DNA of 64,000 bases from Mustelus asterias (Eukaryota): contig NW_027590135.1 in assembly GCF_964213995.1 (NCBI RefSeq), positions 930,001 through 994,000 on the forward strand. Direction: 5' to 3'. Below, one piece after another: positions 8,220 through 32,598 of the stretch; position 1 is the stretch's first letter; each line of letters opens with the position of its first letter. The notes under the pieces were generated by a model. The model was not told where the DNA came from and made no database searches. It saw only the letters and a list, made by a program, of their open reading frames with translations. Position numbers and translations under genes: made by a program.

Positions 8220-8309
8220 CCTGAAGGTGCTGACTCTGACTGGGTTCAGTTCTACACTCACTGGTCCCTCTCGCTCCTCCCCTGAAGGTGATGTCTCTGG
8301 GTGGATTCA
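8220..8309 (+). repeat. 60-bp tandem repeat units, interrupted by the CR1 insertion (resumes ~12667-12693)
   Basis: CCTGAAGGTGCTGACTCTG.CTGGGTTCAGTTCTACACTCACTGG matches the units at 15711-15872. Confidence 0.75.
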
Positions 8310-11300
8310 TAGAAACATAGAATAACTACAGCACAAAACAGGCCCTTCGGCCCCACAAGTTGTGCCGAACATATCCCTGCCTTTTAGGCCTATCTATAAC
8401 CCTCCATCCTATTCAGTCCCATGTACTCATCCAGGAGTCTCTTAAAATACCCTATTGAGTTTGCCTCCACCACCACTGACGGCAGCCGATTCCACTCGCC
8501 CACCACCCTCTGTGTGAAAAACTTCCCCCGAACATTTCCCCTGTACCTTAAACCTGTGTCCTCTCGTAGCAGCCATTTCCACCCTGGGAAAAAGCCTCTG
8601 AGAGTCCACCCGATCTATGCCTCTCAACATCTTATATACCTCTGTTAGGTCTCCTCTCATCCTACGTCTCTCCAAGGAGAAAAGACCGAGCTCCCTCAGC
8701 CTATCCTCATAAGGCATGCCACTCAATCCAGGCAACATCCTTGTAAATCTCCTCTGCACCCTTTCAATCTTTTCTACATCCTTCCTGCAATGAGGCGACC
8801 AGAACTGAGCACAGTACTCCAAGAGGGTCTTATATAGCTGCATCATTAACCCCGGACTCCTAAACTCAATCCCCCAATTGATAAAGGCCAGCACACCATA
8901 CGCCTTCTTAACCACCTCCTCCACCTGCGGGGCTGATTTTAGAGCCCTATGGACCCGGACCCCAAGGTCCTTCTGATCCTCTACAGTACTCAGAGTCTTT
9001 CCCTTTATATTGTACTCCTTCATCCCATTTGACCTGCCAAAATGGACCACTACGCATTTATCTGGGTTGAAGTCAATCTGCCCCTTGTCCGCCCAGTCTT
9101 GCATCCTATCAATGTCCCTCTGTAACTTCTGACATCTCTCCAGACTATCCACAACCCCACCAACCTTCGTGTCGTCGGCAAACTTACCAACCCATCCCTC
9201 CACTTCCTCATCCAGGTCATTTATGAAAATGACAAACAGCAAGGGTCCCAGAACAGATCCCTGGGGCACACCACTGGTGACCGACCTCCATTTAGAAAAA
9301 GACCCATCTATACACACTCTCTGCCTCCTTTGGGCAAGCCAGTTCTGGATCCAAAGGGCAGCAGCTCCTTGGATGCCATGCCCTCTCACTTTTTCTAGAA
9401 GCCTTGCATGGGGGACCTTATCGAACGCCTTGCTAAAATCGATATAAACCACATCTGCCGCTTTCCCTTCGTCAATGTGTTTAGTCACATTTTTGAAGAA
9501 CTCCACCAGGCTCGTAAGGCACGATCTGCCTTTGACAAAGCCATGCTGAGTAGTCTTGAGCATACTAAACCTCTCTAAATGCTCATAAATCTTGTCCCTC
9601 AGGATCTTCTCCATCAGCTTACCGACCACTGAGGTTAGAATCACCGGTCGGTAATTTCCTGGGCTATCCCTATTCCTCTTCTTGAAAATAGGAACCACAT
9701 CCGCAATCCTCCGGCACCTCTCCCGTCTCCATCGACGACGCAAAGATCATCGCCAAAGGCTCTGCAATCTCTTCCCTCGTCTCCCACAGTAACCTGGGGT
9801 ACATCCCATCCGGACCCGGCGACTTAACTATCTTGATGCCATTCAAAGATTCCAGCACAGCCTTAGATCATAGATCATAGAATCTTTTTGTTAAAGCCCA
9901 CATACTCAATCTTTTCAGTCCACCGCAAGCCCGCAGTACATCCACCCAGGTCCGTCTCCTCTGTGAAAACCGATGCAAAATACTCAGGAAGCACCTCCCC
10001 CATTTCTCCTGGTTCCGTACAGATTATCCCACCTTCACCATTTATAGTCCCTATTCCTTCACGTCTCATCCTTTTACTCTTCACATATTTATAGAGAACG
10101 CCTTAGGGTTTTCCTTAATCCTACCTGCCAAGGCCTTCTCGTGACCCCTTCTTGCTCTCCTAATTTCCTTCTTTAGTCCCTTCCTACAAGCCATATACTC
10201 TTCTAAATCCCTATCTTCGCCAAGCTCTCTGAACCTTTTGTACGCTTTCCTTTTCTTCTCGACTCGGTCCCGCATAGCTTTCGTGCACCACGGTTCCTTT
10301 AACCTACAAACTCCTCCCTGTCTGCTCGGAACGTTGTCCTGTAGAACTCTAGACAGACATTCCTTGAAAAACTGCCACCTCTCTTCAGTACATTTCCCCG
10401 AGAATACCTCCTTTCAATTTACTCCACGTATTTGCTGCCTTATGTCTTCATATTCCCCCTTACTCCATATAAACGCTTTCCTAGCTTGCCTGATCCTCTC
10501 TTTTTCCAATGCAAGCATAAAGGAGATAGAGTTATAATCGCTATCCCCAAGATGCTCTCCCACTGACAGATCTGACACCTGTCCAGGTTCATTGGTCAGT
10601 ATCAGATCAAGTACAGCCTCTCCTCTTGTCGGATTGTCCACATGCTGTGTCAGGAAACCCTCCTGAACACACCTAACGAACTCTTCCCCATTCAATCCCC
10701 GTACCCTCAGGATATTCCAATGTATGTTTGGGAAATTAAAGTCTCCCATCACAACAACTCTGCTATTATTGCAACTCTCCAGGATCTGTTTCCCTGTCGG
10801 GCTCCTCCACCTCCCTGTTACAATTGGGCGGCCTATAGAAAACTCCCAGCAAAGTGATCGACCCCTTCCCACTCCGAACCACCCACAGAGACTCTGTAGA
10901 CAATCCCTCCACAGCATACACCTTCTCTGCAGCTGTGACACTGTCCCTGATCAGCAGTGCCACTCCACCCCCTCTCTTGCCTCCCTCCCTGTCCTTCCTG
11001 AAACATCTGAATCCCGGCACCTGGAGTATCCAGTCCTGTCCCCGAGACACCCAAGTCTCCGTAATGGCCCTCCACATCACACTTCCAGGCATCGATCCAC
11101 GCTCTGAGCTCATCCCCTTTATTCACTATACTCCTGGCATTAAAGTAAACACATCTCAATCCTTTGGTCTGAGCTCTCCCCTTCTCTATCCCCCGTCCAT
11201 CCTCCCTCTTGCACCGTCTATAACCCTTCTCTGTTTGCGAGCTAACTTCCTCGCTCCCAGTCACCTTGTCTCAATCCTCTCCCCCCAACCTATCTAGTTT

Positions 11301-12590
11301 AAACTCTCCCCAGTAGCCTTAGCCAACCTTCCCACCAAGATATTGGTCCCCCTGGGATTCAAGTGCCACCCGTTTAGTGTGTACAGGTCACACCTGCCCC
11401 TAAAGAGGTTCCAATGGTCCAGGAACCTGAATCCCTGCCCCCTGCACCAGTCCCTCAGCCACACATTCATCCTCCACCTCACTCCATTCCTGCCCTCACC
11501 TTCCTGTGGCACAGGCAGCAATCCTGAGATTACTACCTTTGCTTTCCTCCTTCTCAGCTGTCTCCCTAATTCCCTATACTCTCTTTTCACGACCCCCTTC
11601 CCCCTTCCTTCCCACATCAGCGGTACCAACATGTACCGCTACCTCTGGCTCCTCTCCGTTCCCCCTCAGGATTTCTGGGAGTCGACCAGCGACATCCTAG
11701 ATCCCGGCCCCAGGAGGCAAACCACCATCCGAGACTCCCGCCTGCCTCCGCAAAAACGCCTGTCTGACCCCCTTACTGTTGAGTCCCCGATTAACACTGC
11801 CTTCATCCTCTTTTCCTTAGCCCTCTGAGTTACAGAACTGGACTCCACTCCGAAGACACGGCCACTGCTGCTTCCCCCAGGCGGGCTGTCCCCCCCAGCA
11901 GTACTCAGGCAGGAGTACTTGTTGTGTAGGGGCACATCCACCGGGGTGCTCTCAATCACCCGAGCTTTACCCTTCCTGGCCGTCACCCACTTGCCCTCCA
12001 CCCGTGGCCCTGGTGTGACCACCTGATGATAGCTCTTGTCTCTCACCTCCTCATTCTCCCTTAACAGCCTAAGATCCTCGAGCTGCAGTTCCAGCTCCCT
12101 AACACGGTCCCTCAGGAACCACAGCTCGACACAACCCTCACAGATGTGGATGTCCGGGAGGCCAGGTGCCTCCAGGACCTCCCAAATCCGACACTGGGAA
12201 CAACACACTGGCTTCACACTCATATTTGACACTTTATACCAAGGTACACAGAAAAGTAAATAAGAATTAAAACTCACCCCTGCTCGCCCTGGCCCCCGAA
12301 GCCCTGTGAGCCAAAGCGCTTATAGCTCACACTCTGCTTCCCAATCACTCCCCTGACCGCTCCCGACGCTGCCCGCTGTGTACTGCAGCCTACCTTTTGG
12401 ACTTTGCGCGCTTTAAAAACCCTTCCCAGACTCCTTAGCAGCCCACTTCCGATTTTCAGTTTAAAATTAAGAAAAGAAAAATAGTACTCTAAATAAAGGC
12501 CAAAAAACACACTAACTAACAAAATAAATAATTAAATAAATCTCTCACCAGCACTCCTGCCACAAATCACTCCCTCTCTGCTTGCTCCAG
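8310..12590 (-). mobile_element. Full-length CR1/HER1-like LINE (frameshifted)
   Basis: ORF1 with CxxC..CxxC, coiled coil and SGNH-esterase motifs (IGDSTVRG, HLNPRG); ORF2 APE endonuclease (FNARSI, TETW, GDFN, SDYN) and RT ([19 protein letters not shown]); short-repeat tail (CATAGAAA on +). Confidence 0.95.
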
Positions 12591-12618
12591 TGGAACAATG
12601 AGCAAACGAAACCCTACT

Positions 12619-12653
12619 GGGCTCGTCCGGGATTTGAACCCGGGACTTCTCGC
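12619..12653 (-). pseudogene. 3' half of tRNA-Pro
   Basis: Reverse complement GCGAGAAGTCCCGGGTTCAAATCCCGGACGAGCCC equals tRNA-Pro from the 3' anticodon-stem strand to the discriminator with one change; 5' half absent. Confidence 0.85.
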
Positions 12654-12699
12654 GTTTTAATGCTCATTCCACAAATTCTGGTTCCTTTCTCTCATACAT

Positions 12700-31637: not shown

Positions 31638-31699
31638 AGATTCAATGTGAGACAGTAACACTGGCGGCTCAACACCGCATTCCCGCCTAATTTTTAACC

Positions 31700-31973
31700 G
31701 AATCCCTGCAGTGCAGAAGGAGGCCAATCGTCCCATCGAGTCTGCACCGACCTCAATCCCACCCAGTCCGGATCCCCATTACCCTATTTATTGACCGGAC
31801 TTCCTCCCCGACACTCCGGTGCAATTTTGCATGGCCAATCAACCTGACAGGCGGGAGGAAACCGGAGCACCCGGAGGAAGCCCAGGGAGAATGTGCAAAC
31901 TCCACACAGACAGAGACCTCAGCCGGGAATCGAACCCAGTTGCCTGGAGCTGTGAGACGGCAATTCTTAGCCA
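31700..31973 (-). mobile_element. HE1-like SINE missing its 5'-most ~18 nt, abutting the tRNA-Leu trailer
   Basis: Reverse complement TCTCACAGCTCCAGG..GGGTTCGATTCCCGGC..V-domain..GCACTGCAGGGATTC. Confidence 0.85.
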
Positions 31974-31981
31974 AAAATCAA

Positions 31982-32064
31982 TGTCAGGAGTGGGATTTGA
32001 ACCCACGCCTCCAGAGGAGACTGCGACCTGAACGCAGCGCCTTAGACCGCTCGGCCATGCTGAC
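31982..32064 (-). tRNA. tRNA-Leu(CAG), possibly non-functional
   Basis: 83-nt match to Leu-CAG; G6>C gives a C-C mismatch in the acceptor stem; followed by TTGATTTTT. Confidence 0.88.
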
Positions 32065-32598
32065 TCCGTTAATTTTAAGCACAGGAGATTGCCCCAAACA
32101 GCTTCAATAAAGTGTTTGCAAACAGCGAGAAGCAGATGTGTGTGAGGATGTTCCGGAGGAAGATTCTTGCTATAGAATCGACTGTGTTTAGGTCCGAATA
32201 TGACTGACTGGGAATTATTACGGGACCAGGTTTAAAAACACAAAAGGACAAAGCCACGACCCGAAACGTTAACTCTGTCTCTCTCTCTTCACAAAAGCTG
32301 TCGGAACTGCTGATTATTTGCAGCATTTTCTGTTTTGATTCCATATTTCAAAGCTCCGGGTTTGTGGAAACTCTTGTATGTGAAGGGCGGCTCTGGAAGG
32401 GTTTGTGTGGGGAGCTGTGTTTCGCTTCCATTGTTAATAAACGGGTTGAAATTGGCGGTTGCAGAAACTGGAGGTGGAGCTGAAAGATCAGGGGCCGTTC
32501 TCTGTGTGTGTGTCAGTCCGGCTCTCTCCTCCCTCCCGCTCTGTGTTTAATCTTCACTCTGTCTCCTCCCCTCTCTGCTCTCACTCCGCCTTTCTCAG

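Follow-up and report, generated by a model that had tools for sequence, protein, structure and literature searches.

Introduction

U6 RNA, an RNA polymerase III (Pol III) transcript that ends in oligo(U), has been documented in chimeras with L1, L2 and RTE long interspersed elements (LINEs) and with short interspersed elements (SINEs) (Doucet et al. 2015, PMC4476161). In the human genome, transfer RNA (tRNA)/LINE-1 chimeras have been reported at 21 loci genome-wide, mostly antisense halves that were ascribed to twin priming (Law and Burns 2026, PMC13174262). Here we describe four junctions, J1 to J4, at which a tRNA or part of one, a spacer and a retroposon follow one another on the same strand, in a 64,000-nt window of the genome of the shark Mustelus asterias (contig NW_027590135.1, positions 930,001 to 994,000; coordinates below are those of the window). 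At three of these junctions the tRNA is a copy that lies inside a retroposon insertion.

In the U6/LINE chimeras one insertion joins a sense Pol III RNA with an oligo(U) end to a truncated LINE or SINE, the small RNA lying on the 5′ side, much as is seen or proposed for J1-J4; they involve several LINE clades, short target duplications and a small RNA that is sometimes 5′-truncated (PMC4476161). They differ in the passenger, which here is a pre-tRNA with internal A and B boxes, for which transcription at the new site is possible in principle, and in the partners, which here are CR1 and a Rex-type LINE, whereas the relevant part of the U6 study holds one unresolved CR1 case, from turkey (PMC4476161). 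The human tRNA/LINE-1 chimeras are alike in that a tRNA was inserted along with a LINE, and J1 is likewise a half; in contrast, all four tRNAs described here are in sense orientation (4/4), three are full-length with trailers and one has an intron. The local rate of 3-4 per 49 retroposon fragments in 64 kb is also far above the 21 human chimeras (PMC13174262), a density that may be either specific to this cluster or shark-wide.

Related events have been proposed for the origin of SINEs. For PittSINE and TguSINE1, a CR1 reverse transcriptase (RT) template switch "to a nearby tRNA" was put forward (Suh et al. 2017, PMC5729268), 5′ additions have been reported for SINEU (PMC4494074) and for hagfish SINEs (PMC7245038), and template switching has been invoked generally for chondrichthyan SINEs (PMC5499810). 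PittSINE and TguSINE1 share with J1-J4 both the proposed step and the combination of a tRNA head with a CR1-type tail; however, there the step was deduced from amplified families (PMC5729268), whereas the products described here are individual and raw, and their trailer and terminator are still intact. J1-J4 also differ from a tRNA-headed SINE family in that each junction is single in the window and, in J2, J3 and J4, a T4 or T5 run separates the head from the tail. Pre-tRNA and tailless retropseudogenes are unprocessed tRNA retrocopies that point to recruitment in the nucleus (Schmitz et al. 2004, as cited in PMC4476161), but these are primed by L1 directly on the small RNA and hold no LINE segment, whereas here a LINE or SINE would have been copied first. 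Finally, Dictyostelium TRE and yeast Ty elements lie, as here, close to a tRNA and at a set spacing from it (PMC5006619), but their tRNA gene is native and outside the insertion, which is not the case at J1, J2 and J4. Small-RNA/LINE chimeras are known; searches of the open full-text literature, as distinct from subscription papers, turned up no account of shark CR1 or Rex-type LINEs capturing sense pre-tRNA, of such events being concentrated in tRNA clusters, or of sense-strand pre-tRNA capture at this density.

Results

Retroposon insertions that carry tRNA copies

Seven tRNAs in the window were found by ARAGORN and Rfam alike, and together with a degenerate initiator tRNA-Met (iMet, 2773-2844) and the tRNA 3′ half of J1 they give nine tRNA-like loci. 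Retroposons were annotated using copies inside the window as references, which yielded 49 CR1, SINE and other-LINE fragments covering ~28.6 kb, a slight undercount given that a few more short fragments appear in a profile search. A sequence-only reading of this DNA had noticed three same-strand tRNA–trailer–retroposon junctions between 8308 and 32080, and all three exist, on the minus strand. A fourth junction, J4, lies beyond that range at 60770-61012 and is the cleanest of the four. The small RNA is directly 5′ of the retroposon on the same strand (-) in 4/4 cases, with gaps of 9-43 nt (Table 1). The order of tRNA, spacer and retroposon is common to all, as had been claimed, but the architecture is less uniform than that reading held: J1 contains a tRNA half, the J2 spacer continues 36 nt past a T4 run, and J3 is perhaps not one insertion.

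The evidence that carries our main finding comes from removing tRNA, spacer and partner in silico and aligning the rejoined flanks to the window. With J1 excised, the flanks complete a 60-bp unit and align over the join to the intact array at 15701-15870 (E 7e-25); among 18,034 window tiles, 6 and 0 scored at least as high as the right-hand host match under the two expected continuations. With J2 excised, three closely similar intact copies match the rejoined older CR1 over the join (E 7e-39 to 4e-34), and with J4 excised the flanks align over the join to an intact counterpart of their low-copy repeat at 41377-41582 (E 1e-21). Four control tRNAs that received the same treatment gave nothing convincing: one had a weak match (E 0.024), two had no spanning match, and the fourth matched its own DNA-level duplicate (the iMet pair 1287/2773, with common flanks), which is the pattern of plain duplication. 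Because the flanks of J1, J2 and J4 restore an intact host repeat, each of these three (3/4 junctions) arrived as one insertion. The tRNA sits within the inserted unit, its 5′ flank is host repeat, and no native upstream flank is present, which is the opposite of the retained native 5′ flanks by which the sequence-only reading proposed to recognise DNA-level duplication. J1, J2 and J4 are therefore tRNA copies inside retroposon insertions. Long target-site duplications at these three sites did not rise above background; the ends of the J4 unit show a ~3-bp duplication, and 5 bp of target were lost at J2. Each junction is present only once in the window.

The association between tRNA-like loci and retroposon 5′ ends is also closer than chance would predict. 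A same-strand retroposon 5′ end lies at most 60 nt downstream at 4/9 tRNA-like loci, while at the other five it lies at 339-8660 nt. For a random position outside annotated elements the chance is p = 0.033 (49 fragments), giving P(at least 4/9) = 1.3e-4, or 2.5e-3 for 3/9 when J3 is left out. If 5′ ends were undercounted twofold, the values would be 1.8e-3 (4/9) and 1.7e-2 (3/9), and if threefold, 7.8e-3 and 5e-2; all are indicative only, as the window was chosen post hoc and the 5′ boundary of J1 was set from our own reference.

Table 1. Components of the four junctions and the neighbouring histone cluster, in window coordinates
Feature	Coordinates	Strand	Evidence or remark
J1 host left, 1.5 units of 60-bp repeat	8210..8309	+	88% to intact array 15701-15870; nhmmer
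J1 partner, near full-length CR1	8308..12590	-	Pfam RVT_1 8442-9746; Lipase_GDSL_2 in frame 11300-11899
J1 spacer, ~28 nt	12591..12618	-	without CCA or perfect T4; border with CR1 5′ untranslated region (UTR) approximate
J1 tRNA 3′ half, anticodon-stem 3′ strand to discriminator	12619..12653	-	T-arm scan
J1 host right, 60-bp unit resumes	12662..12693	+	repeat match; ~8-13 extra nt before tRNA half
J2 host, 3′ part of older CR1	21751..22087	-	83% to 28167-27824
J2 partner, 5′-truncated young CR1	22088..23398	-	last 409 ORF2 codons open, no stop
J2 spacer, 42 nt	23399..23440	-	T4 at +3, 36 nt with hairpin, T3 end
J2 tRNA-Arg(TCT)	23441..23531	-	Rfam 57.8 bits
J2 host, 5′ part of same older CR1	23530..23777	-	85% to 27818-27571
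J3 partner, 5′-truncated tRNA-headed SINE, CR1-like tail	31700..31962 (or to 31973)	-	tail comparison
J3 trailer and 11-nt segment	31962..31981	-	T5 at 31973-31977
J3 tRNA-Leu(CAG)	31982..32064	-	Rfam 51.2 bits and alignment; one acceptor-stem mismatch
J4 host left, low-copy repeat paralogous to 41377-41478	60674..60769	+	alignment
J4 partner, 136-bp non-CR1 LINE 3′ tail	60770..60905	-	~71% to tails 41760-41891, 47602-47720
J4 trailer	60905..60915	-	ends exactly at T5 terminator; final T common to LINE
J4 tRNA-Leu(TAA), top-scoring tRNA of the window	60916..60998	-	Rfam 65 bits
J4 14-nt segment 5′ of tRNA	60999..61012	-	probable leader, or extra nucleotides
J4 host right	61013..61097	+	79% to 41510-41582
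Histone cluster H1, H4, H3, H2A, H2B	30426..37870	mixed (.)	profile/sequence matches

Partners from two LINE families

The partners of J1 and J2 show the clade traits of CR1, namely RVT_1, a GDSL esterase in ORF1 of J1 and CR1 tails, an assignment made by these traits; an APE endonuclease is seen in the homologous CR1 copy at 57-59 kb. The J1 element comprises a 5′ UTR, an esterase-type ORF1, a broken ORF2 and a microsatellite tail, and its 5′ end is only approximate (~12590); another long CR1 (19564-20990) gave no usable alignment with which to fix it. The J2 event is recent, since its CR1 retains 409 open codons and no stop. The partner of J4, by contrast, belongs to a different LINE family, which is distinct from CR1 and also occurs at 41.7-44.9 and 46-47.7 kb. 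The element at 46-47.7 kb has a PF09004 match, a domain typical of the Rex1/Babar clade; the label Rex1/Babar-type is presumptive. Capture is accordingly not specific to CR1, and the attribution of the junctions to CR1 machinery in the sequence-only reading was too narrow.

Both copies of the J4 host repeat (41377-41760 and 60674-60905) contain a Rex-type LINE insertion; the tails of the two lie on the same side, and their positions differ by ~280 bp in repeat coordinates. To polarise the event, another copy of the host was sought in the window, and only weak satellite matches were found.

Pre-tRNA-like ends of the tRNA copies

CCA is absent from the tRNAs of all four junctions (4/4). The tRNA-Arg of J2 starts exactly at +1, where 2 nt are common to the host, and retains an 18-nt intron (23477-23494) after position 37, without which it folds into a normal cloverleaf. 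Its T at position 32 and G at position 26 stand where we take C and A, respectively, to be usual in vertebrate tRNA-Arg genes, and they may reflect later mutation or a variant donor. The J4 copy spans ~-14 to the last T of its T5 run and meets the LINE in a 1-nt T microhomology; it looks like a copy of a whole primary transcript. A T4+ run is found at the junction in only 2/49 retroposon 5′ ends, those of J4 and J3, the latter depending on the boundary chosen. The small RNA is joined at its oligo(U) end in J4 and, under a capture reading, in J3, whereas the J2 spacer passes its T4 run and ends in T3, and the end is undefined in J1. The absence of CCA, the intron and +1 start of J2 and the T5 end of J4 mark the tRNA ends as pre-tRNA-like. 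The earlier proposal that an unprocessed tRNA was captured together with a retroposon in one event is supported for J1 and J2, and for J4 as well, on account of the whole unit splitting its host, the missing CCA and the J2 intron; it does not extend safely to J3, which is ambiguous.

Two of the seven Rfam-positive loci (J2 and J4) are thus retro-captured, with J3 a possible third, and one of them keeps its intron. J2 and J4 retain a full cloverleaf and terminator, whereas J3 has an acceptor-stem mismatch. Because a T4 or T5 terminator lies between the tRNA and its partner in J2, J3 and J4, these copies are not ready-made SINEs, a point that bears on the suggested creation of new SINE heads, and the intact terminator should block SINE-like amplification until it is mutated.

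The tRNA half of J1 was missed by both ARAGORN and Rfam (no tRNA match at E up to 10); the sole Rfam matches there were to a mascRNA fragment that resembles a T arm and to a tmRNA 3′-end fragment. The isotype of the half is presumably Pro, judged by the vertebrate sequence. Scanning the window for T arms, a search blind to iMet-type T loops, revealed no tRNA fragments beyond this half except SINE heads, and Rfam scans across the whole window revealed no captures of U6, 5S, 7SL or Y RNA.

J3 can be read in two ways

No empty-site paralog of J3 is present in the window. A degenerate 15-17 bp repeat around tRNA and SINE together was reached by 9/1500 random pairs and 3/1200 random flanks, while an 11-bp near-repeat with two mismatches around the SINE alone was reached by 18/1200 random flanks; the two competing duplications score 16 and 14. 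The 11-nt segment after T5 is either a degraded SINE head or a target-site duplication. We had at first favoured J3 as a firm capture on the strength of the 9/1500 random pairs, and lowered this estimate after the rival 11-bp repeat surfaced. On balance J3 is somewhat more likely than not a captured tRNA-Leu, mainly because three captures occurred nearby, with a native, decaying tRNA-Leu gene behind whose terminator a SINE landed as a serious if somewhat less probable alternative. Of the three independent captures originally counted, two are therefore firm and this one is ambiguous. The tail of the J3 SINE scores 26-54 against seven CR1 tails and 18 against the Rex tail. We take the name HE1-type for this SINE as a lead only; HE1/HER1 is tabulated for Mustelus manazo (PMC3747384).

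Discussion

How the junctions may have arisen

We consider it fairly likely that the junctions are chimeric retrocopies, produced when a LINE RT jumped from LINE or SINE RNA onto a nuclear pre-tRNA at its oligo(U) terminus. In this scheme, the element's own RNA or a SINE RNA would be the first template for target-primed reverse transcription by a CR1 or Rex-type LINE RT. Where the enzyme stalls or reaches the end of that RNA, it would jump to a pre-tRNA in the nucleus, at the U-rich 3′ terminus, aided by an added or common A:U pair. Copying would then proceed through the trailer and the tRNA, including any intron, and would end at the RNase P end, at the transcription start or where the enzyme stalls, after which the complementary DNA (cDNA) would be joined to the target through short microhomology or deletion. 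We infer here that the template was RNA rather than DNA and that it was reached by a jump rather than by ligation. Such behaviour has parallels in R2, whose RT is most efficient at jumping when a 1-2 nt overhang can pair with the acceptor 3′ end, and mostly adds A (PMC8857657), and whose insertions in cells take up non-coding RNA at their 5′ junctions, almost always U6 (PMC11371274). Pre-tRNA ends are La-bound oligo(U), and the leader is usually removed before the trailer (PMC10275265), an order that fits the mature 5′ end, intron and trailer of J2.

Several observations weigh against this template-jump reading. With balanced dNTPs the A run added by R2 RT is often at least 3 nt long and unproductive, and U6/L1 chimeras have been attributed to RNA ligation instead of jumping (both PMC8857657). 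J1 lacks a perfect T4 and the start of its CR1 is not defined, and the J2 spacer extends 36 nt beyond its T4 and carries a hairpin (z -2.9, reached by 2/200 shuffles); neither presents a clean terminated pre-tRNA end. The J3 segment after T5 scores 9 against the downstream flank versus -6 to 4 against four SINE heads, a result that insertion of a SINE downstream of a native tRNA gene would predict. Finally, no donor gene was seen in the window, where each of the four isotypes is represented once, and the trailers are therefore not established as genomic tRNA flanks; as such clusters extend over megabases (10.1101/2025.06.08.657570), this speaks neither for nor against local donors. Long trailers do occur locally, for example at an unlinked tRNA-Ser whose first T4+ run is at +59. 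Degraded CR1 ORF2 was ruled out as the J2 spacer, which is not collinear with five CR1 copies, and the window held no source for it (best score 24 versus 22-27 for three shuffles). A snap-back hairpin in the J1 spacer was unsupported (z -1.2, 29/200 shuffles), and the best window scores of that spacer (29-30) lacked a shuffle control and were not used.

Pol III read-through from a source locus is unlikely because the partners hold internal T4+ runs (23 in J1, 7 in J2 and 1 in J4). A two-step 5′ transduction can be envisaged in which a LINE inserts 3′ of a native tRNA gene and a Pol II read-through transcript, perhaps cut at +1 by RNase P, is retrotransposed by means of the LINE tail. L1 5′ transductions and promoter co-option are described (PMC13174262), and this route best suits J2, where the spacer passes T4, and J1, with its near full-length CR1 and no terminator at the junction. 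At J4, however, it needs a 136-bp tail to have landed exactly on T5 and T5 then to have been read through; it further needs a prior bias toward same-strand insertion behind tRNA genes, and no junction recurs in the window, all of which leads us to regard it as unlikely overall. Alternatively, the 3′ end of a pre-tRNA might be joined to a LINE or SINE RNA fragment before reverse transcription by an RtcB-type ligation, as for U6/L1, which would likewise yield an oligo(U) junction and a tRNA in sense orientation (PMC13174262, PMC11371274, PMC8857657). The T common to both parts of J4 is expected from annealing, though a 1-nt overlap is weak evidence. RtcB requires a 2′,3′-cyclic or 3′ phosphate, whereas La-bound pre-tRNA oligo(U) ends carry a 3′-OH, and we hold RNA ligation to be a little less probable again than transduction.

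Two further explanations dispense with a captured RNA altogether. If the end of the cDNA invaded a nearby open tRNA gene while the 5′ junction was being repaired, and copied genomic DNA, then introns, trailers, absent CCA and passed T4 runs would all be explained without an RNA step, and copying of nearby DNA is indeed known at R2 5′ junctions (PMC11371274). Such copying would predict local donors, and it should yield either strand and arbitrary ends, whereas the tRNAs are on the same strand as the retroposon in all four cases, with J2 beginning at +1 and J4 ending at T5; we consider it decidedly improbable. It might also be argued that these are native tRNA genes with retroposons adjacent to them, by chance or through targeting of tRNA genes as in Dictyostelium TRE, given that ~45% of the window is annotated retroposon and that targeting is known elsewhere (PMC5006619). 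For J3 alone, where the 11-bp near-repeat flanks the SINE, adjacency stays a real reading at the strength given above, but J1, J2 and J4 have their tRNA inside the inserted unit with host repeat as the 5′ flank, which makes it the least probable account of the set as a whole, and a very remote one. A template jump onto pre-tRNA remains the reading that we prefer.

Meaning for shark tRNA loci

Shark genomes are reported to contain an unusually large number of tRNA loci, with introns in many and with dozens of tRNA-Sec copies, which are grouped with histone genes in clusters that span megabases; the sections of that report considered here state no mechanism for the increase (Squalomix preprint 10.1101/2025.06.08.657570). 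Retro-capture is one candidate cause of the excess that can be tested, and shark tRNA gene counts should be read with the caution that they include retro-captured copies. If the rate of this window (2/49 fragments with a full tRNA, at ~0.8 fragments per kb) were extended to a genome of at least 2.2 Gb, it would amount to ~70,000 copies or more. J1-J4 may also be viewed as unamplified, raw intermediates of a step that has long been proposed to give rise to SINE heads. A connection with the cluster itself is one that we infer. Tentatively, LINEs landing in Pol III-active histone/tRNA clusters might often capture nearby nascent pre-tRNAs, and if so a self-feeding loop would follow, in which the cluster yields pre-tRNA and retro-capture adds promoter-bearing loci. 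Such a loop could conceivably have supplied a substantial share of the shark excess, including intron-containing and possibly Sec loci, and some copies, such as the tRNA-Leu(TAA) of J4, might be working genes; we rate this extended proposal as possible and no better than doubtful.

Gene and repeat context of the window

The histone genes near J3 include an H1 that matches a named Mustelus asterias protein from end to end at 98% identity. H3 (35053-35502, +) has a frameshift at its final codons that results in a C-terminal extension of 16 residues, and an L near residue 78, where we take F to be usual. H2B (37487-37870, -) has an in-frame stop at codon 23 and is a probable pseudogene. A second H2A (62590-62990, -) is 93% identical to that at 36071-36638 and has an extended C-terminus, and a solitary histone 3′ stem-loop (62217-62261, -), with no histone ORF upstream, resembles the H2B 3′ end at 37406-37466 and is probably the remnant of a deleted H2B.

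Among the other tRNA loci, the initiator tRNA-Met is duplicated at the DNA level with both flanks (1199-1453 and 2083-2939, +); a GA-rich repeat and an N gap break up the second copy, which is degenerate. A short CR1-tail-like stretch (28170-28245, -) lies ~105 nt 3′ of tRNA-Ser(TGA) on the same strand, ~45 nt beyond its T6; it was seen by eye, is absent from the BLAST and profile matches and was excluded from the counts.

The interval 38239-40081 holds a 36-bp satellite of ~40 copies followed by a 40-bp array, and the 36-bp array weakly resembles the J4 host repeat. A second short inverted-repeat (MITE-like) family is present at 59123-59284, 3318-3446, 4179-4278, 32263-32347 and 51090-51183, in addition to an abundant short palindromic family at 7128-7327, 17727-17845, 19434-19566, 31322-31636, 52250-52833 and 54738-55218, two copies of which (19434-19565 and 31322-31636) are apparently bounded by direct repeats of ~11-12 bp.

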